Below, piece after piece: positions 1 through 55,935 of a stretch of 64,000 bases of DNA. The notes below the pieces were generated by a model. The model was given only the letters and a program-made list of their open reading frames with translations, was not told the origin of the DNA and ran no database searches. The position numbers and the translations under genes were made by a program. Numbering within the stretch: the stretch's first letter is position 1; each line of letters starts with the position of its first letter. This stretch comes from Amphiscolops sp. MND2022 (lineage: Eukaryota). The stretch is from the NCBI GenBank assembly GCA_964187785.1, contig OZ076409.1, positions 42,348,001 to 42,412,000 of the forward strand, written 5' to 3'.

Positions 1-38
1 GTGAATCTGAAAATCAAGCCTCAACATCAAGGCCAACC

Positions 39-1282
39 TTGATGAACGAGTTGCACCCATCTCAGGGTCAACACATGGTGACAGGAGTGTTCCCCCAAAC
101 AGAAGTGCCGCGCCGATCATCAAGCCTACCGCCCCCCAACCAGAAATACCCGGACCACATAGTGGAAAAGCTACTAGAATCGCTAAAGAACGTAACCCAA
201 CAAAATATCGGGCTCCCTAGACTGCCAAAAGCGATGTCAACAACAATGCCTACTTTCAAAGGTAAAAATGACACGTTTGAACACTTCGAAGACCTTTTTA
301 TGACTAGCCTCAAAGTGTATCCCAACATATCCGAAGAAGAGAAAATACACTATTTTCATTCCTTACTCAGGGATGACGCCCTGCAGACATACCGCAATAT
401 GACCGACACAAACCGTGCCAGCCTGGAGGACATCATAACAACCTTCAGACGACGATATGTCCGCCCCCAATCTATCGCAACAGCCCGCTGCAAATGGAAT
501 CAGCTCTATTTTGACCCATCCCAACAAACTTTTCAAGATTTCTTGGAGCAGTATCAAAAACTGGCCCAAGAAGCATACGGAGATGACGCCCCCAAGTTCA
601 TTGAGACCTCCTTCTACGCCAAAATGCCAACCCACCTAAAACGAGTGCTAAACCAGGCAAGGTTAGAAACTGAATCGTACGAAATGATGGTCGAACACCT
701 AGAAAGAGAAATGGAGCTAAACGGACTGTTGGCACCAAACGAGAGCAACATAACAGGAGTGCACCAAATTGACGTGCAAGACCCACAACAAGCTCCGAAC
801 CCCCCAAACCGTCAGGACCATGCTACGGATGTGGGCAATCCGGCCATGTTGTCAAAAATTGCAGAAAAGTAGCCCGCGAAGCTCGCAATCGGGGTAACAG
901 AGTGCCCAACAAAATAGTTGACCCATGCGAAACCTGTGGCAAGAAAAGCTACACAACCGAAGAATGCTACTCAGGCGCCAACTGGGCAAATCGACCACAA
1001 TGGTGGAAAACCCCCAAGGCTACGTCCTCAAACAGCATACCGCTACCACCACAGTCACAAGGTCAGTATGCCAAAACCAATTTACCAGTGACCCAACCGC
1101 CATATCAAAATCAAGCAACCAGCCAATTGGGCTACCTACCTCCTCTTTCAATGACAACCCAACCCCAAACCCAAACTCAGTACCACAACCAGACAACTGG
1201 CCACATGGGATTCATACCTCCCGCGCAAGTGACTACCCAACCTCAAACTCAACCTCAAAACCAAACCCAGTCAAAAAACTAG
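39..1282 (+). pseudogene. gag: gag of element A, one frameshift at the C-run near 800-806
   Basis: ORF 39-872 has a retrotransposon capsid-like region (MPTFKGKNDTFEHFEDLF). The 902-1282 frame read from upstream gives CYGCGQSGHVVKNC and a second knuckle CETCGKKSYTTEEC, then a Q/P-rich tail. Confidence 0.9.
1273..1279 (+). promoter_or_regulatory. -1 ribosomal frameshift slippery heptamer A AAA AAC at the gag/pol junction
   Basis: TCA AAA AAC TAG: X XXY YYZ heptamer in gag phase directly before the gag stop. The -1 frame is the open 925-1674 frame. A small hairpin TGTCG-AAACC-CGACA lies ~30 nt downstream. Confidence 0.75.
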
Positions 1283-2090
1283 CTTTGCCACATCTTCAGT
1301 TTAGGGAGATTGTCGAAACCCGACATTTCACAACATCAGAACCCCCAAATACCTACGACCACGAAGAAAATGACGAGCGACATGAAGAACCATCTCTCGA
1401 CTGGCAGCGAAGATGGCAGATTCACAAGCTCAACAAACAAAATAGACAAAACATGACTAAAAAGAACTACCCCCAATGGTACCTTGACAACCCAACCGAC
1501 TACAGTACCCCAAAACGACCACTACCCGAAAGTACTGCCCCTGAAACCTACATACATGACCCTGACTACAACTGTGACCCCTACCACAATCCCAAAATCT
1601 ACGACCAAACGACTCTAACCTTTAAACAACGAGAGTGTACGCCATTTGAGGAATTTATCAGGAAACTGGGATGAATATCTCGACAGAACCACGTCACAGA
1701 CCGAAGACCGTCCAACCAGTCCCAGAATATGACCAGGACGCGGAACAAGTGACAGAAATAATAGTCGACGAGTCGACTAACAAACCCAAATCCATACTCA
1801 AAGATCACGGATCACAAACAACGGCTCCACAATCGCCACCAAAAAACCAACCAGTTAACCCAATCAGAGCCGGAAGAATACGATCCCCAACAATGGACGT
1901 GGCACCCGACTGCCACCAAAATGAAAATCTCACCGGCAGGACCACGACTGAAGCCGTGGACCTGACCCAAACCACAACAAACACGGAGATAACAATCTCC
2001 ACACCGCAAACAAGGAGAATAAAAAGGTCTCTACTCCTAGAGCCTCTCTCCTACAACGAGGCGTCGTCCTCACTCTCCTCCCCAAGAAGT

Positions 2091-2437
2091 CAGTCCGCAA
2101 ATGAAGTCGAGGACCCTCGGCCCATTACGACTGACGAAACGAACATGCAGTCTCAATCCCTACCCGGTGATGCAAACAGCACACCACCCCAGGACGTACC
2201 TAGGTCCTACCCCAACGAACAGGCTGCAGAATACCCGAATCAAGATCATTCAGGCAGAGGGACACGAGCCCCCCTCTCTTCTAACACCAGGCAGTCCGAA
2301 AATGAGACCGAGAACCCTCGTCCCATTACGATTGCCGCAACCAACATGCAATCTGAATCCCCCTCAGGTGCTGTAAACGACACACCAACCCAGGACGAAC
2401 CCCAGTCCTACCCCCTGGCGCAGATTGCAGAATACCT
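2091..2437 (+). repeat. In-frame diverged direct duplication (201-bp offset) in the pol N-terminal extension
   Basis: QSANEVEDPRPITTDETNMQSQS...AAEY versus QSENETENPRPITIAATNMQSES...IAEY (2091-2236 vs 2292-2437). Confidence 0.85.
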
Positions 2438-4930
2438 CACAAGAGACCCAATCACCAAAGAGGAATGCATCCCAATCTTCTCAGCGGTGACTCTTAAGAA
2501 AAAGAAGAAGATGCTATTCGCCCCAATGGACTTCCAGGACCTGACCCTGGACGCCCTCATTGACTCTGGAGCGCTGGTCAACTGCATCTCCGAAACCGAT
2601 TACAACAAAATCCTTCAGATGTCCCCCAAGGACATAGTCAAAGAAATGGAACCACCCCCGTTCAAACTCCAAGTCGCAAACGGCGATATTGAAGCCCCCA
2701 CCAAAACAATAATCCTCCAATTTGAAATAGGGGACTGGAATTTCAAAGAGACGTTCATTGTTGCAAAACGACTGACAGGCCCAATACTTGGCCTCACATT
2801 CCTGAAAAACAACAGCGCCATTCTGGATGTAAGCCAAGGCCTACTCCACTTCCCCCATCTAACGTACTCAATTGAAACCGACGAGTACACCCGCAACCGA
2901 AAGATGTACAAAGTACAAGTAAAGAATCCAATCACCATTCCTCCTGAAACAACCCAGACAATCACAGCCTACACAGACATAACGTCTACCATCGGCACAA
3001 CCGGTGTCATCAACCCAGCTACCAACCATTATAGCGGTGACCCCCTAGTAGTAGCCAGCTCAATATCTACAGCCTCCAACAGGAAAATTGAGGTAAGGGT
3101 GACCAACACTACCCCCACACCCTACACAATAAAAAAGAACACGACGGTTGCTGAATTCAAAATTATGTCGCCCGAAGAAGCCAAAGAGCTCAAACCGCTC
3201 AACACCGCAGCACTAAAAGTGCTCACGGAGGATGATTCAGAAGATGCGATACTATACATCAACGAACTCCTGAAAACTTCGGACCAACCTTCCCAGAGTC
3301 AAAACTTTTGGTTCCCCACACCAGACAATCCTGGCGACCCTAATACCCACACGCCGATTCAAAGCAGAATACTGAGGGAAATCAAGGAACTGGAAGAGTT
3401 CCAGAAACTGGACCCCAATAACAATGCTGAAGACCGAGAGGCATTCCTCAAAAACTTTAAATGGGATGATTCCCAATTAACAGAAAATGACCAAAACGAC
3501 ATTGAGGAAATCTTGATAGAGTTCAATGACATTTTCGCGAGGCACCGACTAGACATCGGAATCAACCACGACTTTAAAATCAAGCTCACGCCACAAACAG
3601 ACGACCCAGTCTACTCGCAAAGCCTGCCTTGCCCCAATAACTTGAAAGAGGACTTGACGGTGGAACTGGCATTAATGCATTGCTTCGGGATTATAACAAC
3701 CCTCCCGTTCAGCAAGTATGCCAGCCCGATTTTCGCTCAACGAAAGCCGAACGGCCGCCTACGGCTCCTAGTAGATCTCAGAAAGATCAACAACCTGATT
3801 TCCGATGATTACTTCAATAACAATCATCCGGTCAGCACCCTCACGGACGCGGCACAACACCTCGCTGACAAGAAGTTGTTTTGTAAGCTTGATTGCTCAC
3901 AAGCTTACCACGTACTGCAGATGGCAGACCAGAAGTCAGTCCAACTCCTAGCTTTCAACTTCGCCAGCAGGACGTTCGCGTACCTCAGGCTGGCCCAGGG
4001 ACTGAGCCGCTCACTGTCATCCTTCTCAAGCTTCATGAGGGAGTATCTGGACAAAGCCATAAAGGCGGATAAATGCGCCCAATACGTGGACGACATTGGA
4101 ATCGCCACAAACACTCCTGAAGAGTTGAAAAACAATTTGAGAGAGGTCTTCCAATGCATCCGCGCCACAGGACTCCGACTCACAATGGCGAAATGTCAGT
4201 TCGGCGCCAAGGAAGTCGAATTCCTTGGGCGAACGATCTCCCCATCAGGTGTAGCACCCCAGAGCCACAAGATACAGAAATACTTGCAAACACTCAAGTT
4301 CCCCCGAACGAAGAAAGGACTTCAACGATATATCGGATTTGTGAACTATTACAGAAATTACATTCTTCGATTATCCGAGAAGATTGCCCCTTTCCACGAA
4401 CTCATCAAATCTGACAAGCCTGCCAAAATCGACCAAGAGCTCATAGCAAACTTTGAGGCCATCAACAAGTCCTTAGACAACGCGTGCGGGCTCTGGCTCA
4501 AACAGCCGCTGCCAAACCGGCAGTATGTCATGATGACTGACGCCAATTTCAAGAACGCAGGCTACGCCTTAATGACCGAAGAGGACCCAGAACAGAAACT
4601 CACCTCCACCAAGAAAACCTATGCTCCCGTGGCATTTGGATCTAAAACTTTCTCTCCGTCACAATTGAAAATGTCAATTTATGCCAAGGAGTTTTTAGCC
4701 ATCTATTTCGCCTTCATGGAGTATAGTCACATCTTGTGGGGTTCCTCCAAGCCAACCATCGTCCTAACAGACAATAAATCAGTCACAAGGTTTTTTCAAA
4801 CCAAAATGATTCCACCCTCCCTATGGAACGCTTGTGATTTCGTGCTCCAATTCCATTTCAAAATCTTATGTGTTAAGAGATTAAGTGATAAGTGTTAATA
4901 ACTTTAAAGCTATTATCCCATAATTACCAG

Positions 4931-6223
4931 TTAAGATCGATGCATTTTTTCAATAGTGTAGTTGAATTCGTCTAAGGATGTGCGAATGCACAAAGCTGAT
5001 TGGCTAATTCTTGTCGTATCAAATACGATATTTTGTATTATGCTTCGAGCTTGTTCAAGGGTATTTACGATTTCAGCGATTGTTATAAGAATATCTCGGT
5101 TTGGATGATGATACGGTTTTATGATATTCAGAATTTCTGTATATTTCTGTAATTCATCTGTTGGGCGAAAACTTTGTGGTTGAGGAATATCATTTTTGGT
5201 TTTCTTAGGCGATTCTTGTTTTGTCTTTTTATATTCTTTGTGATTTCCATTTGTAAGAAGTGAAAGCAGGTGGGAAATAATGAAAATTAATTCATTATTT
5301 GAATATCCCTTTTTGATCATTGCGTGGAAATAAGACTTTTCACAGTCTCCCAATGGTTGAGAGGCTATTTGTTGAAGTGGAGGAAGAGGATCAGATATAT
5401 GTTGAGGTATATCTTCTTGTAGTAACGAATCGTCGTTTAGAATGAGGTATTCTTGTGGAACAATGATTGGTCTTTTTGGGTTATCATTTGGAAGGAAGAG
5501 AAAACGCTGTTTCAGCGGGTCATAATTTCTAAGTTTTCCTTTTGTTTTGGTATGATCTATTAAATATTCTGAGTTGAAAGTGAATGGCGATGTATATTTG
5601 GAGTTGAAGAATATATAATTATCGGGCTCTTTATATTGAAGGAACTTTTGATAAGTCATATGGTGGGCCTTTTTGATTTGATTTGGCAAAAAATTTGCAT
5701 CATTTTCTTCTGTTCGAAGATCATATGGAGATGGTCTGAGGAAGTTGTATTGAAATGAGAAAATTTTCACTTTATTGTTTAACCACCAATCATATGGGGT
5801 AATCAGTTTTGAAGCAATTGATGTATGATAATCATTTTTAAATTCTCTGATGATGAATTTGTATTTTGTTGGAATCATGTATAACGAAGTTAACTGAGAT
5901 TGAAATGTGAATTGTTTCGACGAGAGAATAGGAACTAATTCACAATCTCTATCTTCATCTTGTTTAATTGGTTTTATGAAAGGAGGGCAAGCGCCAGATT
6001 CCATAAAAGGTTTATCTGCGGTTATATCTGGGTACTTTCTTTTTTGAGATCTTGTGTTAACATGATCTACTTGTTCAATAGGGATATTTATTATAGGATC
6101 TTGAGAGTTGGAGGAAGAGTTATTATCCTCGTTAACATTTTGTTGAATAGTTATATTCAAAGGGGTTGCAAGCAATTCAGAGGGATTAGAGTTAACTACA
6201 TCAATTTCAGGCAATTCTTCCAT
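4931..6223 (-). CDS. ORF5: intact 430-aa orphan accessory protein downstream of env
   Basis: Uninterrupted ATG-to-stop ORF with element-like composition. Acidic/disordered N-terminus, basic KRKYP motif, aromatic-rich core, helical-looking C-terminus. No family recognised. Confidence 0.8.
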   Translation of the reverse strand: MEELPEIDVVNSNPSELLATPLNITIQQNVNEDNNSSSNSQDPIINIPIEQVDHVNTRSQKRKYPDITADKPFMESGACPPFIKPIKQDEDRDCELVPILSSKQFTFQSQLTSLYMIPTKYKFIIREFKNDYHTSIASKLITPYDWWLNNKVKIFSFQYNFLRPSPYDLRTEENDANFLPNQIKKAHHMTYQKFLQYKEPDNYIFFNSKYTSPFTFNSEYLIDHTKTKGKLRNYDPLKQRFLFLPNDNPKRPIIVPQEYLILNDDSLLQEDIPQHISDPLPPLQQIASQPLGDCEKSYFHAMIKKGYSNNELIFIISHLLSLLTNGNHKEYKKTKQESPKKTKNDIPQPQSFRPTDELQKYTEILNIIKPYHHPNRDILITIAEIVNTLEQARSIIQNIVFDTTRISQSALCIRTSLDEFNYTIEKMHRS

Positions 6224-6351: not shown

Positions 6352-6704
6352 TTAAATTGTACTTACAATATGGGAATACTGGGTCAATGATGGGTTGAAA
6401 ACATCAACAATCACAGTGGCATCTATTCCAGGAATAGAAACTTCTGTGATTTCGGTCGTTTAGATGGACTGAAAATCCAGTTGAAGTCTTCTGGTTGAGA
6501 GTTGAGTTGAGTTGAAAAGGAGAGACCGGTCCGAGTGAGAATTTGGGTGTGAATGAAAGTTGAAACTGAGAAGAATTTGGTTGATAATTTTGTGAACTTT
6601 CTTGAGGTTAATTTGTTTTTTAAATTATTGCTTTTCAGCTAGGAGGGATTGAATTTTTTGAAGACTTTAGCAGGACTTTCCGGTACAGCTATTACATTTG
6701 ACAT
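6352..6704 (-). pseudogene. ORF4: small disrupted ORF overlapping the env tail, paralogous to the ORF3 C-terminal domain
   Basis: Manual translation across at least 2 lesions: MSNVIAVPESPAKVF...FQLSFTPKFSLGPVSPFQLNSTLNQKTSTGFSVHL/TTEITEVSIPGIDATVIVDVFNPSLTQYSHIVSTI*. Confidence 0.55.
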
Positions 6705-9215
6705 TATTGGGTCATAGTCCTGAGAATTAATATCGTTTATATTAGTTGGGTGTGTCTTTTGCGGTGATTGAAATGTTGAATTCTTACTGGAATATTTAGG
6801 AGGTAAATAAGGGGAGTCAGTATCAGAGTGTCTTCGTTTATTGTTTAATTCTTTTTCCGGCAATAGGATATTATCATTTTCACTTGTTGTAATTTTGTGT
6901 TTAGTGTATATCCGTTTTCGTTTTCCTGTATTATTTAAATCGGTTACCATTTCCGATGTAACTATATTAAAAAATCCATGGGCTATTGAACTCAAAATGG
7001 AAATGTTGCTTTGGAGATTATATTTTATGCTAATTGTTCTGTAGAATTTGAGTAAAAATGTTAAAACTTCTCTAATGAAAAGGAATGTTGAAAAATAAAT
7101 TCCACATTGGGTTAAAACATAACATGGGTATCCAAAGAAATTATTGAACGCTTGACTGAACCAGTCAGGGTTAAAAAGTGGTAAAAGATTTAACAAGTGG
7201 TCATGTACTCCAATCCTTAAATGATTATAGGGATTATGTCCTGAGTATGAGTGTTTTTCATTATGCATTGAAATGAAATCATAGCTCAATGATTTTCCAA
7301 GTAATTGAAGAGTTGTGTCTGAATGTTTAGCAAATAATACTCTATTCCAGAATTGATCTAATTCTGCTTTTGAGTATATACCGGCATCTTGGGCGGTAAA
7401 TGTATTAGGAGTGATTGTTGTTTTAATTTGGGTAGGTTTAAACATTTGTGGTGCTTCTCGTTTGAGTGGTTCTGGTGTTAACACATAAAAATCTCCGTCG
7501 TTGGAATCTGGATCTAATTCTATTATATTTTGTGGGTTATTTCCACATTCAATTGGTGTTGCGTAGTTAAAAGTTTGTCTTGTTATTGGGTCAACATACA
7601 TTATCGTTTCTCTGAAGTGTATAGGAATTCTATCAAAGCATTTATCTGCCTTGTATAGTGGTGATATAAAATGAGGGCAATCATACAGCCATGCTGTAGA
7701 TCCTTCAACGTAGAGAAAGTTACTACGATTTCCAGTTAAAAGAAAACCGGCTAATTGGGGATTTTTAACTGACATTGCTAGTATTGCTAACAGTTGAGTT
7801 CTTTCTAGTTCACATATTGTATGAAGAGTGTTTAGTTCTTGTACTGTCATGGATTTAAATACATGATTTATTGTGAAATCAATTTTTGTATTAATGTGGG
7901 CATCATAGTCTAAAGTGGCGAAATTGTTTGATATATTCAATGCAGGGAATATATACCTTTTGTTTGAATCATCATATTTTATATTTCCACTAAATGTTTG
8001 GTCAATTATTGAGTGTGGTTTTGGTAATCCTGTGTTCATATCAAAACCATCTAAGTATGTAACAAAGATGTCATCATATTGTGTTGAAAATAATGGTTCA
8101 GGTTTTCCACAGAAGGTTTGTGCAATTGGGTATATTTCAAATCGAGAAAGGCTTGGATTGCTTACTTTTGATTGTGGTGTTTTTATTTTAGGGTGTTTTG
8201 TTCCTTGTATTCCTTCGGTTTGAAGTTTTTGTGTGATGTTTGAAGTTTCATTGAAGGTATTGGTTTCTATCCAATATCTATCTTTGATTCGTGTCATTCT
8301 ACCAATGAATTCTTGAAGTTGAAATATGAGGCAAAATTTTTCATCAAACCATGTTAATGTATATGGAGTTTTGGTCGTTGGTTTACAAAATCCGTCTGAA
8401 TGATAACATGGTAATATGTGTCCGTCATGTATTAATTGATTGTTTTTATCGTCATAATCTATTGCGGTGTTAACAATTCTAAGTTTCCAACTTTGTCGGG
8501 TAATTAAATGTTCGCGGTCTGATCGACATCTAGAGTATGTATTTTGTGTAACATTAACTATCCAATCAGGATAATTTTTGTCAAATACGAAGGTTCCAAT
8601 ATGCCATGTATTTAATTTTTTTACTCTAAATGGTGTCTGAATTCGTTCAATTGTGTTTTGATAATTATTATCATCGAACAATGAGAAAGAGCTTTGTTTA
8701 TTGTAGTTGTATAATTCTTCGCTATCAGTCGCGTTTAAATATCTGATCATATTTTTGCATTCAATAGGGTCCAATATTTTTGGAAGTTCTAATGTGTTTT
8801 GTCCCCATTGTAAACGATCATATCGTCTACTAGATGTGAATGTTTGTGAACACCAGACTTTCTCAGTCTTTATATTTGCTTCACATTTAAAGGCTTTTAT
8901 TCTTTTGGCTTTTGCTCTAACGTAAACTGTTGCTTGGGTTTTTGTGTGTTGTATATCTGAGGGTGCTTGTTTACATGGTTCTACATTTAATAAACTGAAT
9001 TGTCTTAAGATATTTTGTTTTGCACAATCATAATGAGATACCATTAAGTTTAAAATGTTAGGATCTTGGTTTGAAATATGATTTTCGGAATTGGTGGTGT
9101 CAACTTTGGGAACAGTTGAAGGGTGAACTAAAGAGTGAACTATATTTATTTTATACGTGTATTTAACAATTTGTATTATATATATAAAATGAAAGGTAAA
9201 GGTGATTTGGTTCAT
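6639..9215 (-). CDS. env: Envelope glycoprotein, class III fusogen-like (chuvirus G / herpesvirus gB-type), 858 aa
   Basis: Hydrophobic N-terminus; N-terminal pattern HYDC...FSLLNVEPC...FKC...VWC...PIEC as in chuvirus-like glycoproteins; many Cys and N-x-S/T sites; central coiled segment; C-terminal hydrophobic stretch (YPCYVLTQCGIYFSTFLFIREVLTFLL), then a basic tail. Located 3' of integrase. Confidence 0.82.
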   Translation of the reverse strand: MNQITFTFHFIYIIQIVKYTYKINIVHSLVHPSTVPKVDTTNSENHISNQDPNILNLMVSHYDCAKQNILRQFSLLNVEPCKQAPSDIQHTKTQATVYVRAKAKRIKAFKCEANIKTEKVWCSQTFTSSRRYDRLQWGQNTLELPKILDPIECKNMIRYLNATDSEELYNYNKQSSFSLFDDNNYQNTIERIQTPFRVKKLNTWHIGTFVFDKNYPDWIVNVTQNTYSRCRSDREHLITRQSWKLRIVNTAIDYDDKNNQLIHDGHILPCYHSDGFCKPTTKTPYTLTWFDEKFCLIFQLQEFIGRMTRIKDRYWIETNTFNETSNITQKLQTEGIQGTKHPKIKTPQSKVSNPSLSRFEIYPIAQTFCGKPEPLFSTQYDDIFVTYLDGFDMNTGLPKPHSIIDQTFSGNIKYDDSNKRYIFPALNISNNFATLDYDAHINTKIDFTINHVFKSMTVQELNTLHTICELERTQLLAILAMSVKNPQLAGFLLTGNRSNFLYVEGSTAWLYDCPHFISPLYKADKCFDRIPIHFRETIMYVDPITRQTFNYATPIECGNNPQNIIELDPDSNDGDFYVLTPEPLKREAPQMFKPTQIKTTITPNTFTAQDAGIYSKAELDQFWNRVLFAKHSDTTLQLLGKSLSYDFISMHNEKHSYSGHNPYNHLRIGVHDHLLNLLPLFNPDWFSQAFNNFFGYPCYVLTQCGIYFSTFLFIREVLTFLLKFYRTISIKYNLQSNISILSSIAHGFFNIVTSEMVTDLNNTGKRKRIYTKHKITTSENDNILLPEKELNNKRRHSDTDSPYLPPKYSSKNSTFQSPQKTHPTNINDINSQDYDPIMSNVIAVPESPAKVFKKFNPS

Positions 9216-9217: not shown

Positions 9218-10686
9218 TTAAAATATTGATCTATAATTGAGTCCTGAGTAGGGATTAAAAAAGTTTATATGTCCTGTTCCAATATCAGGTAAATCTGCGT
9301 CACAAAGGTAGGAAATGGAGGTAACAATGAATGGTGATGGGGTTGTTTTATGTGCTACTCTTGTTGAAAGAGAGAATGGATGAGGTCCTAACGAGTTGAA
9401 TGTGACTTCTACTTCAAATTTTAATGTGAGTTGTTGTTCTTGTAGTCTTCGTAGTTCTCTTTGTTTTCTTTGAGTTGAGAGTGAACTATTGTTTATAAAT
9501 CTTGCAGGTAATACCGTGTATCGAGGATCTTCGTAAGCGTGCGAACAATTTTTGAGTTAACACGAATAAGATATTCGTGAGGATTTGGCGATGGAGGTCT
9601 TGAGAATTCTTCTAAAAAATATTCAGGTAATTGTATAGAGGAGTTTGATGCTATTGAACTAGGTGAGTAAACTCGTGAAAAATTAGCTGCGCTATCTGAT
9701 ATAGTTGCTGGCTCTTCAGAAAGAAGAGAGGCTGTTTCAAATCCTGATGTGATTTGAAATGGTAGTGATAGAGAAGATGGTATAGTGGGCTGAGATGAGG
9801 AAAGAGAAGAAGTGTCCAATCTGGGTTGGGCGTGTTGTCGAAGTAGTCTTGAGTTTGTACTTGAACTAGTTAAGGATTGTAATTCTTGAGAATCTCTTTG
9901 TTGTTGAGATCGAAGGTTATATTTATGTCTTGGTACTCTAGTACTAGCAGTTGAGTCAGAGTCTTTATCTTTATGATATAAATCAGTTAATGAAGAGGTA
10001 GTTGGTGAATGTACACGTTGTAATTCAAGCTTGGGATATCTTTGAGAAAATGTGAAGGAACTTAGTTCCGATGGTTTAGGAGTTGGGTTTTGTTGTGATT
10101 TTTTCGTTGGTGATTTTAATGAAGGTTCTGGTAAAAATGTTATTGGGATATTACTTGATGATGGTAAATCAAGATTTTGTGGTAATGTAGGAAATGGAGT
10201 TTTTCTTTTTGTTTTCGTTGCAGTTGGTACTTTGTGTGGACAAGAATTTATGTATTGTAGGACTGAGCTAGGATCAGGGATATGAATAGAACGAGTGGTA
10301 GTAATCAATGGAAGAGGAGGTCTATTCAAAATATCTGAAGTATCTTGTGTATTTGGTATTGTAGGTGTTTCATCATTAGAGTCAGAAAGTGGTGAATTTG
10401 TTTCTAAAAATGTTAGATTTCGTGAAATAGGTTGTGATTGAGTTGTTAATATTTGTGGTTGAGTTTGGGATATAGGTGTATTAGTGGGTGTTGTTGGTAC
10501 TCTATCAGGAGTATATGGAGCGGATGGATTGGGATTTGAGGATGAGGAATCCAGTATGTCTGTATCTGAGTTTAAATATGCTGTATATTCAGATAATCTT
10601 TGGAGTGAATGTGTTGAACTAGAAGAAGAGTTATTTGTAGTTGATGATGGTGAGTGAATATGTCTATCAATTTTGAAATCGTTGTG
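9218..10686 (-). pseudogene. ORF3: ~490-aa Ser/Thr/Pro-rich accessory ORF between integrase and env, one frameshift near 9552
   Basis: The 9493-10329 frame is open upstream to 10686 (no ATG found). After a one-base shift at an A5 run it continues AYEDPRYTVLPARF...GHINFFNPYSGLNYRSIF*, with TAA ending 2 nt before the env ATG. Confidence 0.7.
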
Positions 10687-10854: not shown

Positions 10855-12509
10855 TCAGCAGGATTTTTGAGAAAGTGAAATTATATCCTTTTCACCAAGA
10901 AAGAGTCGGTAGTCTTTTCTTGGTTGTGGGCGGAAATTGTATCTATTATAGGAGTGTCTTCGGGGATTAATAAAATTATCATAATCATGAATATCTGATT
11001 GGTTATCCAGGGAGGTATTTTGAGGAATTTGTTCTTTTTGTTTATATGGAAATGAAGAATATTGGTTAAATGGTTCTGGTTGTAAGTCAATCGTGGATGG
11101 TATATCCGTTTCTTTATTAAATGTTGTGGAAGGAAATTGTTCTTCGTCTGTAAATTTGTCTTCATCAGAGTTATATATTTGATCGTTTGTATTTGGATGA
11201 CAGTCATTAAATAAATGAGGGTTATATTGTTGTATGGAAGGGAAAATAACTGGTTCTTTTGGATAATAAGGAATTAAATGATTTCTATGTATGTGCGATG
11301 TATAACCATCTTGATTATCAATTTCATATGTTATATCGGAGAGTTTGTTAATAATTTTGAATGGGCCAATTCTGAGAGGTTTTAATTTATCGGAAAAATG
11401 AACATGGAGAAACTTTCTTTTTAGTACAAATGTACCAATATCTAAGGGTCTTGGATTGTGATATGTTTTGTTAAAATAAGCATAGGAATTAATCTTTCTT
11501 TTTGTGTTTTCATATACCGTATGGAATATCTCTATCATAGCAGTTTCAGTAGCTAAGATCCATTGTGGAATTGGTTTAGCTAAAATTTTATGAAAGAAAG
11601 GGTTTAGATTTGATTTGTCATAGTGTGTATGAAGTGGTAATTCTTGACAATATTGAGAAGTACAATTTCTATATGTATCTCTTTGGAGATTGAGTTCAAA
11701 GTTGATTGGAATTCTGGGTATAGTATGGAATACTATTTCATATGGAGATAAGTTTAATTCAGAAAGTGGTTGTGAATTATGTGCATAAGCATACATATGG
11801 ACTTGAGTTGACCAATTTTCTGGAGTGTTATGTAAGAAAAGTCTGAGATGAGTTCCAAGATTTCTGTTTTGATTTTCAACTAAACCATTTGTCCATGGTG
11901 CATAAGGAGTTCTTGGTGAATGTCTAATTCCCATTGTGGTACAAAGATTTGCAAATTCTGAATTAATATATTCTGTTCCACGGTCGGTAACTAGGTATAC
12001 AGGAGGTCCAAATTTTGTTATCCAATGATGTAGTAATGAGTTAACAGCGTTTTGAGCGTTATTTTGTTTTATCGGTACTGTTACTACAAAGTGACTAAAA
12101 GCGTCTACTATAACGTGAATGTATGAGTTTTGATTTGATGGTGGGTTTATAGGTCCTTTTGTATCCATTGATATTCGGTAATTAAAATATGAAGCATTTT
12201 CTGAGAAGGTATGTATAGATGCAGTTTGTAATTTTTGGTGTTTATTACAACGATGTGTTTATTGTGTTGGCATTCAATGCAATCATGGATGAATATTGAC
12301 ATCCATTTATTCAGGTACGGTATGAAGTAAAATTGGTTGAAAGCTTTGATGGATATTTTTATTCCTGAATGTCCATGAGCATGAAGTTTATTAAAAGCTG
12401 TGTGGAAAAGTTTAAAAGGTAGACATATTTTGTCTCTTTGATTCGGGTTTGAATCGTGAAGATTAGGATAATCTATGTGAATAATTTTTGTATCATGATT
12501 ATTATACAT
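10855..12509 (-). pseudogene. Integrase of element B (HHCC + DDE core + C-terminal domain), frameshift near 12240
   Basis: LHAHGHSG...DCIECQ zinc finger; MDTKGP, VDAFS, VTDRGTEY and NGLVENQN catalytic motifs; KLKPLRIGPFKI. Confidence 0.95.
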
Positions 12510-12837
12510 AATTGGTTGAAGAGTTTGTAATATACTAATAAGAAAAAGTTAGCTGCAATTGTTGGGTCTATTTGTAAGGGTCTTTCATTATTAAGTATCC
12601 ATTGGTAAACCTTTTGTAAAACAGTATCTTGATTTTGTTGAGTTTTTATGGTTTCAATGGTTATTTGTGTATCTTCTGGTAGGAAGAAGTAATTAAAATA
12701 TTTTTTGTATTTGAAAAAGGATGGATCAAAAAATGGAACTTGTTGTGTACAATAGTCAGATTTGGTAGGATATTGTTTAGCAAAGGTGTATTTTTTTACT
12801 ATGTTTGAGTTTTGTTGTTGGATATTATTTGATGGTG

Positions 12838-15744
12838 CTATTTCATCTTCATCACTAAGAATGTCAGTATCATTAAGAATTGTCGATTGTTGTAAAAGAG
12901 ATTTTGCTTGTTTTTTGTAGGTTTTTTATATTTTGATTCGAATGGAACAATAGATTGAAAAGAGAAGGAATCTAAAGGCTTTATATGTATATCTTCTCCT
13001 TTGTTATTTATACGGATGGAGAATTGGTCGTCTCCGTAGTCAGCAAGGATAGGATGACAATCATTCTTTTGATTATATTTTATTTCTTCATGTTTTACTA
13101 AATAATGTACTGGTTTGAGTTGATTATCTTTCATGTTAGAGAAATCTATTTGAGGTGGTAATTGTTTGTGTCGTAATTGGTGTACTTGTAGCTGTTCTTT
13201 TGTAAAGGTTCTTGAAAGCATATCTGCTACAGTTAAATTTTTTCCAGGGGTATGAATGATTTTTAATTTAGAAAATTTGGTTAATTGCATTTGTGCTCTA
13301 TAGAATCTAGGACTAAGATTTCCTTTCTTTGCGAAACAATGTAGTAAAGGCTTGTGATCTGTGAAGAGATATATAGGATGAGGAGATCCAATGATCAAAA
13401 ATTCATACATTTGTCATGCGTAAACTATTGCAAGAAGTTCTCTGTCTAAAGTTGAAAGTTTTTGTTCTTGTGTATTGAGAATTCTGGAGTTATAAGAGAT
13501 TACTTTCATCTTATTTTCTTCGTTCATTTGGAATAGGACTGCGCCTAAACCTACTAACGAAGCATCTACTGTTATAAAAAATGGATGCGTGGTGTTGGGT
13601 TTTGTTAATTCAGTGTTTGCTGTCATTGCGTTTTTAACATTTTGAAATAGTTTTTCTAATTCAGGTGTCCATTGAAATTTAACATCATCATGTAGTAATG
13701 TATACAATGGTTTAAGGTCTATATGAAGTTTTTCAATGAATTTTGAATAAAAGTTAACACTGCCAAGAAATTGCATAACATCTTTCTTTTCTTTTGGTGA
13801 TGGGATTCTTTTAATAGCTTCAATTCTGGATGGAATTGGCTTAATTGTGTTGTTACCAATTTCATGTCCAAGGAATTTTACTTTGAGTAACATGTAGAAC
13901 GATTTTTCAGGTGCAAGTTTGAGATTTTCTCGAGATGCTATTGAATGTAATTCTTTTATAAGTTCAAACATTTCTTGTTTTTCATTTGCGAGTAATATGA
14001 TATCATCTATATAGACTAACGCAGAACGTTTGTCTATAAGTGATCTAAAGAAAGTTGACATTTGTTTTGTGAAAAAGTTTGGAAGTCCTTTTAATCCGTA
14101 AAATCCACGGATAAAGGCGTATAATTTGTCACCGGATGAAAATCCTGTAAGTTTAAATGTTTCTTCATCTAATGGTGTATGAGCATATGCATACATTAGA
14201 TCAATAGTTGATTTGTATTTTTTATTTGCTCTAGCTAATTGAGGAGCTAAAGGTTCAATAGGCCAAGATTCAAGTTCTTGGTTAGTGTTTGAGTTTAGAT
14301 GTCTTGCGTCTAAAACAACTTTTATTGCGTCTCCTTTTGGGATAATAATTAAAGGGTTTAAAAATGTTGTTCCAATAGTATGTTTTTCATCTGTTGTCGA
14401 ACCACTTTGTTTTATGATGTTGTATTTTTCGAGTTCTAGTAAAAGTTTATTTAGTCTATCTCTATAGTGGATAGTTACTTTAGAAGGTCTTTGTGTGTGA
14501 AGTTTACAATTATCTTTTATTCTAATTCGAAAAGGAGTAGAAATCTTTCCTACGTCGTTTTTATGTTTGGCGTAACAATTTTGGTTGTTAATTAGAATAT
14601 TGCAGAGATTTACATATTCTGTATCGGTTAAATCTGAGTATTCGAAATTGAACTTCTTTATGAATTGTTGGTTTTCTGTAGAATAAGGTAAAGGAGGGAA
14701 ATCTTTTCGAATTTTATCTGAAGGTCGAAGGTTTCCAGTAACAGAAGGTATAGGAAGTTGAAGTGTTTTGTCGTTAATTTCTATCTTGTTTATTTCTAAT
14801 AGGGATTGTGGTATTACCCTAGTACATAAGTTCATATCTGTATATGGATTTTGTTGAATCGGGGTTGTGGTATCAGGGTGATATGCATGTATTACAGAGT
14901 GAATGAGTGAATTTACATCGTTAACTCTGTAGTGAGGAGGAGTTGTTTGCGTAATAGGTATTTCTATATATCCAATAATTCCTCGTGGTAATGTAGCTGG
15001 GTAAGATGTAAAGTTTTGAGTTATAGTTGCACATGAGTCTTTGCTTTTTTCATTGACTATCATGTCTAAGAAATGAAAGATATTTTTAAATTTTTGTAAG
15101 AAGTATGTATATGGGTTTGTTGGGTAGAACTTCGTATTATCTTCGAGTTCAAAATGTAGATTTGAATAGTTTTTAATTGGAAAATGTATGGTCTTTCCTG
15201 ACCTTGGTTTAAAGTGAATTGGTTCCTTACATTTAATAGTATAAATGTAAGAAATATATGGATAATCTGTTTCTGTAAATGTAGAAAATGTAGTTTTTGT
15301 TGAAAGCTTTGGATGTTGTTCTGTGTACGTCATAATGTTTTGTTGAAAATCAATATTTTGGATGTGCTTTTTGAAAAAGGGTGTTCCAAGAATGTTGTAT
15401 TTGATATTTGCTACGGCAAAATCGATAATGAAGGATCGTGTTTTGTGATTTACTTCAGTGAAACAGGTCATCGAAATATAATGTATTATTGGTACTTCAG
15501 TTTGGTTTGCAACTGTAAGAGTTTTGGCTCTTTTGTTTTGGAGGTTAGTGGGAACATTGATGTTTAATTGTTTGGAAATTACATGAAATGTTGGTAAATT
15601 CAAAACAGATACGGAAGCTCCAGTATCTAAAAGGAATAAGATTTCTAATTTTGAAGGTAAAATGTTGTCATTTGTTTCAGAGGCGTCAATATATAGTGGA
15701 TAAAACCAACTATAAGGAATGATTGTATTAGCTATTTCAGTCAT
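12838..15744 (-). pseudogene. pol: PR-RT-RNase H of element B, in-frame TGA at 13414-13416
   Basis: FLLDTGASVS; VYIDDII; KFLGH; TVDASLVGLG; DRELLAIVYA*QMYEF...FTDHKPL...VADMLSR. Confidence 0.95.
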
Positions 15745-18700
15745 TTGACAGGTGTGGATTTCAAATTTTGTACTATCATTTTCTTTTGGGGTTTTAACGT
15801 CTACTTGATTTATTCTGTTTTGTTGTCTGTTTCTTGAGGGTGTTCTAGATCTTGATCTAAAATCTCTAGGTCTTGATGGAGATCTAAATGGATAATTATA
15901 TCGTTTAAAGTAGTTTCCTTGTGATTGAGAACGAGATCTGTATCTTGAGCGAGAATTATATCTGTAATTTGAGTTATTTCTGTATGGAGATCTATATGGA
16001 GATCTAGATGGAGTTCTTCTTTGATAATAATTATCAAATCGAGATCTATACGGACTTCGGGATCGATTATAATATCTTTGTCGAGAGTTTGATCTATAGT
16101 TGTTTTGCGAATATTCTCTACTATTGCTACGATATCTATCATTGTTTCTGTATCTATCATTATAGTAGTTTTGATTATATTTATTACGATCATTATCTGA
16201 GGAATAAGAGTTTGTATTTTCATTTCGATTTTCCTGAGGATTATTAGGTTTACTGCGAAAATATTGTACAAAGGATTGTTGAGGAGTTCGTGATCTTTGG
16301 TTATTGTATTTCTGGTATTCGTCATCACGTTGTTTTTGCTAACAATTTGAAATACTATGATAATTTTTATGACAATAGGAACAATATTTTCTATACGCTG
16401 GTTTGCTTTTGTTATTTGGGTCTCCAGTTTGAGTAACCATTATCTGATCTTCGTATTCAAATTCTTTTTTGTTAGTATTCTCTTCAAGCGATACTTTGTT
16501 TATTTCTAGGGCTAAGTCGTTAGTTCTGATTTTTTCATTAGCAATATCTTCTGAATCGACATGTCTAACAAGTGTATGAAATGGTATTGAAGGTTCAAGT
16601 AATGTTGATACATGTTTAACTTGTCGTTTATGGGCAAAATTTTTTAACTTCTTTGGTAACCCTCTTATAAAGATTTCTTTATTTTTGAGATTTATGGTAG
16701 CTGCATTTTCATTACACCATCCCTTTTTAACTAATTGTTTTACTCTAAGGGCGCAGTGGCGAACTGTTTCATTATCCTTTTTCATGAGTGACATAGCTTC
16801 TACTCGAGCGTAGTAAGCAGTTTTTTGAGATGAGAATTGTTTTTTGAATAGTTTTACAAAAGAATTCCATTGTTGTTTATATGATATATGGAGGTTAGTG
16901 TACCAATCGAGAGCTGTTCCTATTAATGAGCATTGTATGTAAGCCATGCGTCTGTTATGCCAAAATTTGTATTTTATAGGATTATTTTGAGGTTCTTCAC
17001 CTATGGCGAAGGTTAATCTTGCTTCGACTTGTTGTAGATATTCTTCGGGGGTGTAAGAATGGTCCAAACCATCAAAAGGTTTCATAGGTTCTGGTATTGA
17101 AGCGGACATGTTTATAAAGGTATCTTGTGGCATTGGTAAATATTGGGGTGGAGGAGCTAATTTTTGTGTGAGTGGTGGAGGTATATGTTGGATTGTATTT
17201 GGTGGTAATGGGTTAGGATTAGGGTTAGGATTTGGATTTGGATGCGTTTGATACAGAGGATCAGTTGGTATGTGTGTAAGTGGAGGATTATGAAGTCTTC
17301 TTTGAGAATCCTGTGTAATATTAGAATAAGAAATTGAAGTACACGAGATTCCTTGATTTTGAGAATATATATTCTGGGATGTATTGGTATTTGATAATTG
17401 TATGAAGGGGTTTGTGTTGTTGAAATTGTAATAATTTGAGAGTGGTTTTGGTTTATATTTGTATTGGTAGTTGTGTTTGATGGAGGATAAAAGTTATAAT
17501 TAAATGGATCGTAATATCGGTTGGAAGTTTGAGGATTATCATTAAAATTGTTACTAGAAGTGGTCGATCGGTTTGAGCGAAAGGCGGAGGGAATTGATGG
17601 AGGATCATATCTAGGTCGAGTAATGTATCTTGTAGAATCAGAGGTAGTTCTTGTTGGAGATGCAACATTAGCAGAAGTATTCTGAGCACTAGATGTAGTC
17701 ATAGTATTATATTGTAATGTATCATGGGTTTCATCGTTTATGTCATCTGTATGTGGAAGGTTAAAAGTTATATTACGGTTTGGAGATGTATCTAAATGGG
17801 ATTGAGGACTATGTATATTTTGTCTTTGATTTACAACTCTAGTGGGAACTCAAAAGGAGTGAGTATGTACTGATGTTGATGTCCCTGTTTGTGATGGATT
17901 ATATGTTGAGATTGTAGATTCTTGGGTAGTAAACTCTTATCGTTATAGTTTTCAGGTTGATTTTGTTGTTGGGTTGTATTTTCCTGATCGGTGATATCAT
18001 CTTCAGTAGAATTGTTAGTGTTAAAATGTAAATTTTGTTGATCTTGAGAATTTTGTTGATAGTGGTAAGGTCTATTATCTGGGAATAGATCATTTTCTGT
18101 AATTAATAGAGGATCGAAACGTATGTAATCTAAGGTTTGTTTTGTAATTAATTGTGGTTTATGAAAGTAAGGATGTTCATTTTGTTTACTGATGACGAAT
18201 GGTAAACATTCTTCTAATGTAAATTGATCTGGAAATTCTGTAAAAGCAGATTGATCTTGTTGAGACCATAATAGTTGATAATTAAATCTGAAAGAGTTTC
18301 TGAGAAATAAAGATATTGTTTTGATCTGAGGAATTGTTTGATCATTTAATGTTAGGTCTTTGAAGTAGTGGTAGATGAAATTTTGAATTCGTAGTATATC
18401 AGCTTGTAACCAATGATGAGGGTTGTCTTCAGGATTAACCAATGTTTCAATAATTTCTACGTCGAAATTGTCTATGTATCGTTGCAGATCGTCGAGTGCA
18501 TTTGGACTATATTTTGGAATTTCGTGTGCTAAATTGTGGTCTTTTACATTATTTAGAAAAGCATGAAAAACTTGTTTAATAGGAACTTGAAGGTTTATTG
18601 GGTTTATTGTTCTTCTGTATATATGAGATGAGTTAAGTTTTTGTTGAGGAAAGGATATTTGAAAAATTGGGTATTCTTCAGTGATTGTTAAAACTTTATA

Positions 18701-18899
18701 TCTAATATAGAAAAGGTATGTGTCCAAATGTTCTCTAATAAGAGGGATTGTTTCAATTGTGTGGTTCATTTTCAAATGGGAGTGGTTGTGTATAAAGTGA
18801 AATAATGTTTTGTAAAAATGGGTTTAGTTCTAATTTTACAACTTTTGCATTTTTAATGACGGGAGTTTGGAAAGGTAGAGGGGTTGTCGTTGAAGACAT
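15745..18899 (-). pseudogene. gag: Very long gag of element B (N-terminal extension, capsid, CCHC, RS-rich tail), in frame with pol
   Basis: ATG at 18899 (MSSTTTPLPF). Fragments 17831-18775, 17157-17702 and 16339-17133 are joined by frameshifts. Capsid-like MKPFDGLDHSYTPEEYLQQVE; knuckle CSYCHKNYHSISNC; TAG at 16339, then an open RS-rich frame running directly into pol. Confidence 0.8.
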
Positions 18900-18935
18900 T
18901 TTTAAAGTTTATCTCTTATCACTGTAAGTATTTTT

Positions 18936-19118
18936 TCAAGAAGAACACAAACAAAAAGTTCGAGCTCTTGGGTAATTTCGTTGTTGATTTATGATAAAGA
19001 AAAAATATCGTTGATATCGTTCAATTAATCTTTCAAAATCGTTTGGTGTAGGGTTTTGAAGTGAGCTAATTGGTGGAATGTAAAAGTTGAAAGGATAAAT
19101 TTCTTGGTTTGGGTTCAT
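18936..19118 (-). CDS. Short upstream ORF (60 aa) in the leader of element B
   Basis: ATG-initiated, same strand and composition as the element, ends 36 nt before the gag ATG. No recognisable motif. Confidence 0.35.
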   Translation of the reverse strand: MNPNQEIYPFNFYIPPISSLQNPTPNDFERLIERYQRYFFFIINQQRNYPRARTFCLCSS

Positions 19119-20144
19119 ATAAGTTGTATTGTAATTTGAAGTTATTTAGAAGTTAATATTTTAGGATAGAGAAGAAATAAGCGGGTGCAGTAGGATCTGT
19201 ATTCAACCTCAAAGGATTGCTAACAGAAACTAAATGTTATTTTAAGTCTGGATCTCTTTAAGGTGTCTAACATAAGGTTACTGACACGTCCAGAAAAAAC
19301 TAAGGTTGTTTTAATTTTAAGTAGGTTGTGTGTTTTAAGACTAAAGGAGTGGAACTCTGAACAATCAACGTCCACTATCCAAAGTCTGATCAATACTGAT
19401 CAAGATCAAAACTTGATCTTTGTTTCTTTTACTTTTACTTTTACTTCCTGAGAATTTTGAAGATTCGAACGTAGTTCGGTTTCCTCTCGATTCTCCTTAA
19501 AAACGTTTACACTTAATTAAGGTTTTTAGTCAGTCTTAGAATCAGAGTACGCTGGTGAGGCTATCTGATTGGCTAAGTCTTACGGGAGGGAATAGCAATT
19601 GTGGGTGCCTGAAAGTAAAAAACTAACTTTACTTTGTTTGTGTTATTTACATGCCTTATTTTAAGTTTTAAAGCAAAAGAGATGTGAAAATTGTATGTTG
19701 TATTTTGTTAAAATAATTGTTTTGTAGGATTATGTTAAAATTATTAGTATTGGAAGTACTTGAGGTAAGTTTGAGTTTATTTGTTATTGTTCTTTTTGTT
19801 GATTATTGAAAACATTTTTGAAGTTATTTGTATTATTTAAGTTTTGTGAATTTATTTGTATTGTTTGTCGACAATAGGGAAAGAAAGGGAATAGTGCGTG
19901 GTTGTTTTTGGTAGTTAGTCTTGGTTGCCTTTTTTTGTTTTCAGAGTCTATTTCTGAAATTTTTTTGTAGGAAATTTTGTAGAAAGGGGATCCGAAACGT
20001 AAAAGTAGAAAATCCAGGTTTTCTGCCAACACGAAGTTGATCTTGAGACGTATGTGCTTATAGGTGAGCGGAGTTGGACATGCACTCAGTCAACTATTAC
20101 ACCAGGAGTCCACCTGACGTTCAATATAGCAGGATTGAAGAAAG

Positions 20145-27600: not shown

Positions 27601-28034
27601 ACGAAAATGGTCTAGAGTCGGTACCAGCTATCTGAGAAACTTTTATCCTCACATTAGAATATTAACCTATCAACGCTGTAAAGCATCCCCTACGCAAAAT
27701 TGAACGGTGGAATGCTCATTGTAGGAAAATTCTTTAGTGAAACGTTTTTTTTAGAAAATCAATATAAAATAACCTAATAAAAAGCCAACAAAACCATTGG
27801 ATTCCATGTTTCCATGGATTAAAAAAATGGTTCTGCAGCGCCTGAGTGATTTCACACAACGGAAGCTTCAAAATTGCTCATAATTCTTAATCAATGTTTG
27901 GTTTCTCAAATCGTTAGGATAGAAAATTTTGCTTCAATAAAGCTTCTACTTCTATCGAGAAAATGAAATTTTTACACTGGTTATATTTCTACACTGCATA
28001 CGAAACTTTTGGCGAAAGACCGTTTTTTCAGTTA

Positions 28035-55722: not shown

Positions 55723-55935
<213 letters not shown>

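Follow-up and report, generated by a model that had tools for sequence, protein, structure and literature searches.

A predicted class III envelope glycoprotein encoded by a large Ty3/Gypsy element of Amphiscolops sp.

The env gene and its carrier element

The stretch of DNA analyzed here (64,000 nucleotides, hereafter the window) harbors the intact env gene of a Ty3/Gypsy copy of about 15 kb with a broken pol, and the predicted class III glycoprotein that it encodes likely serves to fuse particles of the element with target cells. All three genes, gag, pol and env, belong to a single element with env behind gag-pol, and its parts are as follows.

18824..20100, reverse strand: 5' non-coding part of the element; the base skew falls back to the background level near 20.1 kb
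17831..18823, reverse strand: frame upstream of gag, about 312 aa from its ATG; a separate ORF or the 5' part of a long Gag
16339..17849, reverse strand: gag, with a Retrotrans_gag domain and a zinc knuckle; split between two frames and interrupted by an in-frame stop near 16339
10855..16338, reverse strand: pol, in the Gypsy order of protease (DTG), reverse transcriptase (YIDD), RNase H and integrase (H2C2, core, GPF-type C-terminus)
9218..10686, reverse strand: frames rich in Ser/Thr/Pro (9493-10686 and 9218-9556) that separate integrase from env, matching no family
6639..9215, reverse strand: env (P0001), 858 aa, uninterrupted; class III (gB/chuvirus-G-like) glycoprotein by prediction
4931..6223, reverse strand: ORF behind env (P0131), 430 aa, of no known family, with predicted C-terminal helices
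4869..4930, reverse strand: 3' end of the element, adjoining a second Gypsy element whose own sequence is cut inside RNase H; no 3' LTR

The Gypsy nature of the carrier, already proposed in a first-pass annotation of this DNA, was borne out by the Pfam domains, by the PR-RT-RH-IN domain order and by a comparison of the reverse transcriptase with 11 PDB sequences, in which Ty3 came first (2e-35), followed by the CaMV-type (6e-25) and foamy (2e-18) enzymes. The integrase C-terminus matched the Pfam families Integrase_p58_C and SH3_Tf2-1, and the protease of the window was recognized by its DTG motif, a Pfam protease match being obtained only in a related element (L001) that carries gag, pol and env in the same order and is 27-36% identical (env 27%, gag 28%, pol 35-36%). 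No BEL/Pao-type pol was encountered, the RNase H, integrase and reverse transcriptase matches being all of the Gypsy type.

The env frame runs from an ATG at 9215 to a stop at 6639 on the reverse strand with no interruption over its 858 codons, and the following features were recognized in its product.

9132..9215, reverse strand: likely signal peptide (aa 1-28), by hydropathy alone; weakly hydrophobic here, clear in relatives
8973..9032, reverse strand: YDC-x8-FSLLNVEPC (aa 62-81), its cysteines kept in 31/34 and 32/34 relatives
8016..8960, reverse strand: fusion domain nested, by prediction, in a PH-like domain (aa ~86-400, 8 Cys), the best-modelled region
7764..7898, reverse strand: predicted central helix (aa 440-484), containing the conserved Cys468
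7050..7118, reverse strand: predicted TM segment (aa 700-722), preceded by an aromatic membrane-proximal stretch (aa 678-697)
6948..7004, reverse strand: second hydrophobic stretch (aa 738-756), amphipathic, with basic residues flanking both sides
6642..6944, reverse strand: predicted disordered tail (aa 758-858)
6792..6803, reverse strand: PPKY (PPxY) motif (aa 805-808), in register across sub-families with tails 16-21% identical

The N-terminal motif had been described with a seven-residue spacer; the motif is present, but its spacer is one residue longer (x8). The spaced cysteines reported downstream of it are likewise found, with 16 cysteines in the whole protein and 14 in the ectodomain, each of the latter being conserved in 30-34 of 34 long relatives. 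By hydropathy only, the best 19-mer of the N-terminal signal scores 0.97, versus 1.26-1.58 in three sibling copies. Hydropathy also agrees with the annotated TM segment (Kyte-Doolittle 19-mer of 1.59) plus second hydrophobic stretch (mean hydropathy 1.09, moment 1.24). The second stretch likely lies along the inner leaflet, with a second TM as the alternative; in several distant relatives its hydropathy is TM-like (1.6-2.1), which would place the tail outside the cell. The long basic tail of the annotation is indeed long (about 100 aa) but only mildly basic (16 K/R versus 10-11 D/E), its basic residues clustering beside the membrane. No furin site (R-x-[KR]-R) is present in the protein.

The predicted layout would comprise a signal peptide, a fusion domain in a PH-like domain and a central helix, followed by a single TM, an amphipathic helix and a tail on the cytoplasmic side. 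By analogy with class III fusogens, Env would stand as a trimer on the particle and refold to a hairpin once triggered, and the behavior of Drosophila errantiviruses suggests that cell-to-cell spread towards the germline may follow.

Assignment to class III

The Pfam family PF24664 (Monjiviricetes_fusion) matches the window Env with 90.6 bits against a cut-off of 27 (E 8e-26), and is the sole Pfam family to do so at E<=0.1, with no F-type family match. Atlas returned PF24664, herpes gB and rhabdovirus G at 0.93-0.95. In Foldseek searches against the PDB, herpes gB occupied every row among the matches listed (best E 5.7e-8), with low TM-scores (0.08-0.21), and the top match in BFVD was a chu-like G (E 4.8e-20), the chu-, xinmo- and qin-like G proteins ranking ahead of herpes gB among viral proteins. 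Finally, a VIA search of 48,161 chains yielded seven rows with Z>=5, all of them class III fusogens or their domains (for instance 4ot1_A, rmsd 2.9 over 79 residues), at Z values of 6.1-6.6 that fall below 8, a range which that tool itself words as common. Sequence searches of the PDB with the protein and with an env profile returned nothing meaningful.

The model behind these fold searches is weak (mean pLDDT 51, pTM 0.32, 463/858 residues below 50) and leaves the C-terminal half of the ectodomain without a resolved structure. The long central helix anticipated by the first-pass annotation is seen in it as two segments (H440-455 and H458-484) of low pLDDT, and this region is the best-conserved sequence block of the protein. 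At its first predicted tip (aa ~123-132), the hairpin is polar in the sub-lineage of the window env, and hence hydrophobic fusion loops are not evident; a Trp at aa 218 is common to some relatives. Taken together, the PF24664 match and the fold matches to herpes gB, chu-like G and rhabdovirus G identify the product, by its predicted fold, as a class III membrane glycoprotein and not an F-type envelope. Pfam, Atlas and the three fold searches thereby agree with the class III, chuvirus-G or gB-type call made earlier for this gene, and the Foldseek comparison that had been proposed for it gave herpes gB and chu-like G as best matches among those listed.

Motifs of the cytoplasmic tail

The PPKY motif lies exactly where it had been annotated, and PPxY is present in 48/55 tails of the window env's own sub-lineage. 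When PPxY, P[TS]AP and YPxL are considered jointly, seven of nine independent tails in a first set carry a motif (0.44 expected), with 1/9 in the ectodomain control (1.05 expected). A held-out set gave 10/22 (1.32 expected; control 1 versus 1.92) after prior removal of 14/36 tails that were at least 45% identical to another row, half of which (7/14) had a motif. Pooling the independent tails, one of the three motifs occurs in 17/31, versus 4 when reversed and 2.5-3.3 expected from block shuffles, and a count of 17 was attained in none of 6000 shuffles; the remaining 14/31 tails have none of them. The commonest motif is hydrophobic-Y-P-x-hydrophobic (15/31, 0 reversed), P[TS]AP is found in 6/31 (0 reversed, decoys 0-2), and PPxY was rejected as a clade-wide signal (4/31 forward versus 2 reversed, with 0-5 for decoy last residues). 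Judging from the tail sequences, the enrichment is carried by YPxL and P[TS]AP, PPxY being kept only in the window sub-lineage. From lineage to lineage, one of the three motifs largely takes the place of the others, which is typical of late domains, and such motifs also occur in 3/11 other frames of the elements, including the window Gag, which has a PPxY of its own.

PPxY motifs are bound by WW-domain ligases of the NEDD4 type, P[TS]AP by TSG101 and YPxL by ALIX, whereas YxxPhi is the tyrosine signal recognized by AP-2. PPKY is therefore a plausible NEDD4 ligand and, if the motif statistics are a guide, the window tail would bind a WW-domain NEDD4-type ligase through it, while in the tails of relatives YPxL would engage ALIX or AP-2 and P[TS]AP would engage TSG101. 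The host trafficking factors so bound may sort Env to endosomal or budding membranes.

Somewhat short of an even chance should be given to the motifs serving instead the internalization or turnover of Env, through an AP-2 tyrosine signal and NEDD4 ubiquitination, with no part in particle budding. The commonest motif doubles as YxxPhi, which is found in 28/31 tails versus 11 reversed, and the PPxY of the window Gag also favors this explanation. Conversely, P[TS]AP is a TSG101 ligand and not an AP-2 signal, the fixed proline after the tyrosine fits ALIX better than AP-2, and the interchange of motifs between lineages is late-domain-like. Late domains have been attributed to Gag and to other structural proteins (PMC8402826), which again favors a turnover role for motifs in Env.

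A role of the tail in budding enters a broader proposition that we advance as tentative and consider rather doubtful, namely that the window element represents a deep clade, hitherto undescribed, of large and complex Gypsy retroviruses. In such a clade, interchangeable ESCRT late domains (PPxY, P[TS]AP, YPxL) in the Env tail would drive or direct particle budding, an accessory gene would follow env, and expansion would have led to thousands of copies in the host. The enrichment of tail motifs in this envelope lineage was not met in the literature searched, and the text of PMC13524379 mentions neither tail motifs nor ESCRT nor accessory genes; the enrichment goes beyond the account of Chary & Hayashi (eLife 2026), and so does the conservation of an ORF of the P0131 type after env.

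The ORF behind env

A counterpart of the ORF that follows the window env is found behind env in two other families. Neither Pfam nor Atlas assigns it to a family, its predicted fold is poor (mean pLDDT 37), and neither a signal peptide nor a TM was recognized on inspection of its sequence. It is not matched by the downstream ORFs of L001 and of another related element (L002), and hence this accessory gene is not clade-wide.

The conservation of this ORF bears on whether the Env of this sub-lineage is a stand-alone fusogen at all. That it serves attachment, or depends on a partner, for instance the product of the ORF behind env, would be congruent with the polar loop tip, with the domain I insertions relative to distant relatives and with the need of herpes gB for partners (PMC13524379). 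We nonetheless deem this improbable, for this Env retains all 14 ectodomain cysteines as well as the predicted central helix, membrane-proximal stretch and TM, and the candidate partner lacks a recognizable signal peptide or TM.

Relationship to known systems and origin of env

Ty3/gypsy elements with a gB-type env, including a chuvirus-like form, have been described across animals (Chary & Hayashi, eLife 2026, PMC13524379), so that the occurrence of such env genes in LTR retroelements, mentioned in the first-pass annotation, is already published for Gypsy. The closest system is that of these Ty3/gypsy "errantiviruses" with HSV/gB-type ENV, in particular the C1 cysteine type of insects and Schmidtea. 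The window element shares with them the GAG-POL-ENV order, a Ty3/gypsy reverse transcriptase and integrase, multiple copies, a gB-type ectodomain between a putative signal peptide and a predicted TM, the lack of a furin site and, as far as the supplement sequences extend (domains I-II only), the identical run of eight domain I-II cysteines of the C1 type. It differs in that its env is a remote branch with no close row in the part of those domain I-II sequences that was compared, and in its length of about 15 kb, its pol-env gap of 1.6 kb (versus a 1-kb prefilter in PMC13524379), the ORF behind env, the frame before gag, clusters in the thousands and a copy that is not intact.

Anakin, a mosquito BEL/Pao element (Dezordi et al. 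2020, PMC7642597), has the same kind of glycoprotein, and the cysteine spacings 111-122 (11), 270-277 (7) and 277-295 (18) equal, by eye, those of three mosquito BEL gB-type rows in the domain I-II sequences of the eLife supplement; the carrier here, however, is Ty3/Gypsy and not BEL/Pao, and nothing here suggests that its env is close to present-day chuvirus G. With the Chuviridae-, Xinmoviridae- and Qinviridae-like G proteins the window Env shares PF24664 above cut-off, the best predicted-structure matches and a predicted TM followed by a second hydrophobic stretch, but it differs in its identity of at most 16%, its retroelement context, a longer tail and longer insertions in domain I. Herpesvirus gB, rhabdovirus G and thogotovirus GP resemble it in the predicted nesting of the fusion domain in a PH-like domain, the long central helix and the membrane-proximal aromatics, and differ in an identity of about 10%, in fusion loops that are not evidently hydrophobic here and in the lack of a PDB sequence match. 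Like the F-type env of Drosophila gypsy and ZAM, the window env is the third ORF of a Gypsy element with a presumed role in entry; unlike these and baculovirus F, it is of another fold class, has no furin site and matches no F-type family. Lastly, Troyka/Kuafuorterviruses present IADD/VADD/LADD in the reverse transcriptase, no GPF/Y and no env, whereas the window element has YIDD, GPF and env, and Odin/lokiretroviruses possess a tether and a second RNase H; in the window element and in L001, Pfam marks one RNase H region.

Capture of an RNA-virus fusogen by this Gypsy lineage had been put forward for the window env. Its capture from a chuvirus-like negative-strand RNA virus after the split from other env-bearing Gypsy lineages would be in line with the ranking of the viral G proteins in BFVD and with the comparable capture published for mosquito Pao elements (PMC7642597), but we regard it as unlikely. 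Structural identity to viral G amounts to only 8-16% over the 50 rows listed, and 17 other env proteins that match PF24664 score 27-163 bits on it versus 614 for the arthropod-type L004. A quick tree (built with no viral rows) shows a deep set of relatives, with L004 on a very long branch. Moreover, env and gag-pol are equally diverged from L001, and no relative turned up in viral_contigs when it was queried with the env profile, with the env of L004 or with the pol of L001. Given the low identity to viral G and the parallel divergence of env and gag-pol, a capture that is recent or peculiar to this lineage is unsupported. The association of env and pol is likely old, and may go back to an ancient capture or to a transfer in the opposite direction.

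Copy families and integrity of the window copy

The window env cluster comprises 1,585 members, and further env clusters 1758, 603, 424 and 4561. Full-length env was found in 23/60 of the listed members of four clusters, and in 4/15 of those listed for the window cluster.

The gag-pol of the window is interrupted by two in-frame stops and shifts frame at least three times; in pol, the stop lies near 13414 and the shifts near 12.9, 12.5 and 12.25 kb. On account of these stops and frame changes, the copy lacks the continuous ORFs for full-length reverse transcriptase and integrase that define an intact errantivirus in the sense of Chary & Hayashi, and it could not replicate alone. Host domestication of this env copy would explain an open env, with an open ORF behind it, beside such a gag-pol, but is highly improbable in a copy that is one of 1585 near-identical cluster members, in which the whole element is still in place, pol itself keeps a 2.9-kb unbroken stretch and some of the frame changes may be assembly errors.

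No LTR pair was detected within the window by repeat search and self-BLAST. The word TGGCGCC near 20350 was considered as a primer site and rejected because it sits in a dispersed repeat present at three other places. In L001, a purine tract is followed by TG, and a short repeat is common to both contig ends. No host gene was recognized by eye among the frames of 24-64 kb of the window. Three sequencing runs cover 27/30, 29/30 and 18/30 window bins and are uninformative on expression or ends.

Implications

The class III assignment adds one very divergent lineage to a picture already known, in which gB-type env has long belonged to the Gypsy elements of animals. The assembly and cell entry of gB-type errantiviruses have been stated to be unknown (PMC13524379), and motifs that point to NEDD4, TSG101, ALIX or AP-2 provide a first handle on where their particles form. 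If Env does supply late-domain function, this would depart from the Gag-centered rule that applies to reverse-transcribing viruses. Whether env aids the expansion of such elements could, in addition, be well addressed in a host that has env-bearing copies by the thousand.

The envelope gene and its predicted fold

The envelope gene (env) is a single uninterrupted frame of 858 aa on the minus strand, running from an ATG at 9215 to a stop at 6639, the interval that the first-pass annotation gave to an envelope. Of its N-terminal pattern, given there as YDC-x7-FSLLNVEPC, both halves are present (YDC at aa 62), with a spacer of eight residues, not seven. The transmembrane (TM) segment and second hydrophobic stretch noted at the same time lie at aa 700-722 and aa 738-756. 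The product contains 16 cysteines, and each of the 14 in the ectodomain is present in 30 to 34 of the 34 long relatives; inspection of the sequence revealed no furin site. Hydropathy gives the window env a weak N-terminal signal, 0.97 where three siblings reach 1.26-1.58; that of more distant relatives is clear. One relative (P0069) carries an extension of ~260 hydrophilic residues ahead of a strong N-terminal TM in place of a short signal peptide, and in a cluster member (P0074) env is partly duplicated in tandem within one frame of 1323 aa.

The class III (chuvirus G/gB-type) reading is the one to which Pfam, Atlas, Foldseek and VIA all point. The sole Pfam family for env is PF24664 (Monjiviricetes_fusion, E 8e-26), and its Atlas matches at 0.93-0.95, which come with a recognition value under the tool's comfort level, are to clusters of PF24664, herpes gB and rhabdovirus G. 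Built on 18 sequences, the AlphaFold2 model scores poorly as a whole (pLDDT 51, pTM 0.32) but is good across much of aa 86-400. With this model Foldseek, a check proposed in the first pass, gave herpes gB alone among the PDB matches listed (best E 5.7e-8), and chu-, xinmo- and qin-like G proteins on top in BFVD (best E 4.8e-20), the latter being 8-16% identical to env among the 50 matches listed. A VIA search of 48,161 chains gave 7 rows at Z>=5, every one a class III protein or domain (Z 6.1-6.6). Because TM-scores are low and VIA Z values below 8 are common, the class III case rests on the agreement of methods. Counted by eye, three domain I-II cysteine spacings equal those of mosquito BEL gB-type rows in the portion consulted of the eLife supplement of Chary & Hayashi (PMC13524379). 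The first predicted hairpin tip of the window sub-lineage is polar, not hydrophobic as fusion loops would be. Env is a real class III envelope of a known kind on a Gypsy element, its fold and topology being predicted.

Organization and state of the element

Base skew delimits a minus-strand unit from ~20.1 kb to 4.87 kb. It opens with an unassigned frame of 330 codons, then come gag and protease-RT-RNase H-integrase, and after these the Ser/Thr/Pro-rich frames, env and the 430-aa ORF.

Frames flanking gag-pol and env
17831-18823, minus strand: frame upstream of gag that matches no Pfam family; either a gene of its own or the 5' portion of a long Gag
9218-10686, minus strand: frames rich in Ser/Thr/Pro that separate integrase from env; PSAP and YPKL occur in the longer one (chance of any motif 0.28)
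4931-6223, minus strand: 430-aa ORF behind env (P0131)

The RT is nearest to Ty3 among 12 PDB sequences, and Pfam identifies the integrase C-terminus as Gypsy-type. Two in-frame stops (near 16339 and 13414) interrupt gag-pol, as do frame changes at about 12.9, 12.5 and 12.25 kb, so the window copy could not replicate alone; assembly errors may account for some of the frame changes. A repeat search of the 64-kb window detected no LTR pair. The 3' end adjoins another Gypsy element, itself cut in RNase H. This second element (1-4868, plus strand) is more GC-rich and encodes gag, protease, RT and RNase H, with a pol ~26% identical to that of L001, a related locus; it stops inside RNase H at the junction, and its remainder is absent from the far side.

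Elsewhere the window holds a dispersed repeat of ~58 bp with a TGGCGCC word (20325-20382, 38875, 39243, 46811), a 46-bp tandem pair (20141-20232), MITE-like 31-bp inverted arms 352 nt apart and a hairpin with 45-bp arms and a perfect turn (28031-28444 and 26929-27018), a unit some hundreds of bases long that recurs as near-identical translated frames (33292-33769, 37990-38470, ~62960) and an AG microsatellite (near 55700-55950).

For P0131, which is open in many copies, 303 relatives were found (E<=0.001); it has no Pfam or Atlas family, and its structure prediction is too poor for use. Two read-through/deletion products of env that belong to other families resemble it in their C-terminal parts (43% and 28%, E 9e-12), and four contig sizes recur in both the env and P0131 match lists, which indicates that it is a fixed part of the window sub-lineage. 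In the related loci other ORFs take its place, a pair of paralogues 35% alike in L001 and a single, weakly related one in L002, ending in probable coiled coils.

Relatives and age of the envelope gene

This is a very large family: 1585 members fall into the window env cluster, and related clusters contain 1758, 603, 424 and 4561, all from ENA and from one assembly or several; 23 of the 60 members listed, across four clusters, are full-length. A metagenome scan confirmed 4 loci out of 124 pattern matches. L001, a gag-pol-env element plus two further ORFs, is 28% (gag), 35-36% (pol) and 27% (env) identical to the window element. Searching 1.84 billion representatives with a profile yielded 348 proteins at E<=1e-30, and all 16 long proteins tested match PF24664 at 27-154 bits; L004, whose env is of arthropod type, reaches 614 bits. 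In a quick tree of 38 rows the window sub-lineage falls inside a deep set of PF24664-matching env proteins, and the branch leading to L004 is very long; with no viral rows, the tree is silent on donor or direction. Taken together, the L001 divergence, alike for env and gag-pol, the PF24664 scores and the tree argue against a recent capture of env and fit an old env-pol association. The first-pass proposal that this Gypsy lineage captured an RNA-virus-related fusogen is not supported as stated. In L004 (886-6055), the chuvirus-like env comes first and is followed by a Ty3-capsid gag and a protease, in the order env-gag-pol.

Motifs in the envelope tail

The tail, previously described as long and basic with PPKY, is ~100 aa long and does carry PPKY (nt 6792-6803), but is only mildly basic (16 K/R versus 10-11 D/E). 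In most rows the TM is followed by basic residues, and in the window env such residues also stand on either side of the second stretch. This speaks for a cytoplasmic tail, though the second stretch could be another TM pass in relatives where it is strongly hydrophobic. PPxY occurs in 48/55 tails of close relatives. Across four sub-families compared, all of the one lineage, tails are 16-21% and ectodomains 63-73% identical, and three of the four keep PPxY in register. Among independent tails (one row per group below 45% identity), 7/9 contain PPxY, P[TS]AP or YPxL (0.44 expected), against 1/9 ectodomain controls (1.05 expected). The motif set had been picked after viewing these nine tails and was therefore retested on proteins found later: after prior removal of 14/36 tails for similarity, 10/22 held-out tails had a motif (1.32 expected), as did 1 ectodomain (1.92 expected). 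Pooled, 17/31 tails have a motif, compared with 4 reversed and 2.5-3.3 in block shuffles. In these 31 independent tails the enrichment is carried by YPxL (10 versus 2 reversed) and P[TS]AP (6 versus 0), PPxY not being enriched clade-wide (4 versus 2). A YxxPhi signal is present in 28/31, and the YPxL sequence also fits a YxxPhi internalisation signal. We take these motifs to be putative ligands of NEDD4, TSG101, ALIX and AP-2.

Comparison with published elements

In the parts consulted, Chary & Hayashi (PMC13524379) describe Ty3/gypsy elements with gB-type env from across the animals, count 114 gypsy elements whose glycoprotein is chuvirus-like, and hold that the origin is ancient; their eLife text mentions neither late domain, PPxY, ESCRT, cytoplasmic nor accessory. 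Excerpts of earlier work describe Pao elements with chuvirus-like glycoprotein (Dezordi 2020, PMC7642597), Gypsy fragments beside such glycoproteins (Dezordi 2023, PMC10084718) and extra ORFs of LTR elements in rotifers (PMC5408684). Descriptions in the available parts of PMC12440569 and PMC11673190 exclude a Troyka/Kuafu identity. No paper on PPxY, P[TS]AP or YPxL in Gypsy or chuvirus-like Env tails was found among the papers listed, which come mostly from outside the subscription literature, so absence is unproven; the portion consulted of PMC8402826, on late domains, shows none.

For env, the analysis establishes its sequence and family, its context and copy number, and the enrichment of motifs in the tail. 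Env would be produced in the secretory pathway, assemble as a class III trimer and be directed by its tail to endosomal or budding membranes. Intact family members could then take it into their Gag particles, and it might fuse these with neighbouring, possibly germline, cells. What sets this variant apart is its divergent branch, its large and complex layout and its tail motifs, which make a modest follow-up worthwhile.
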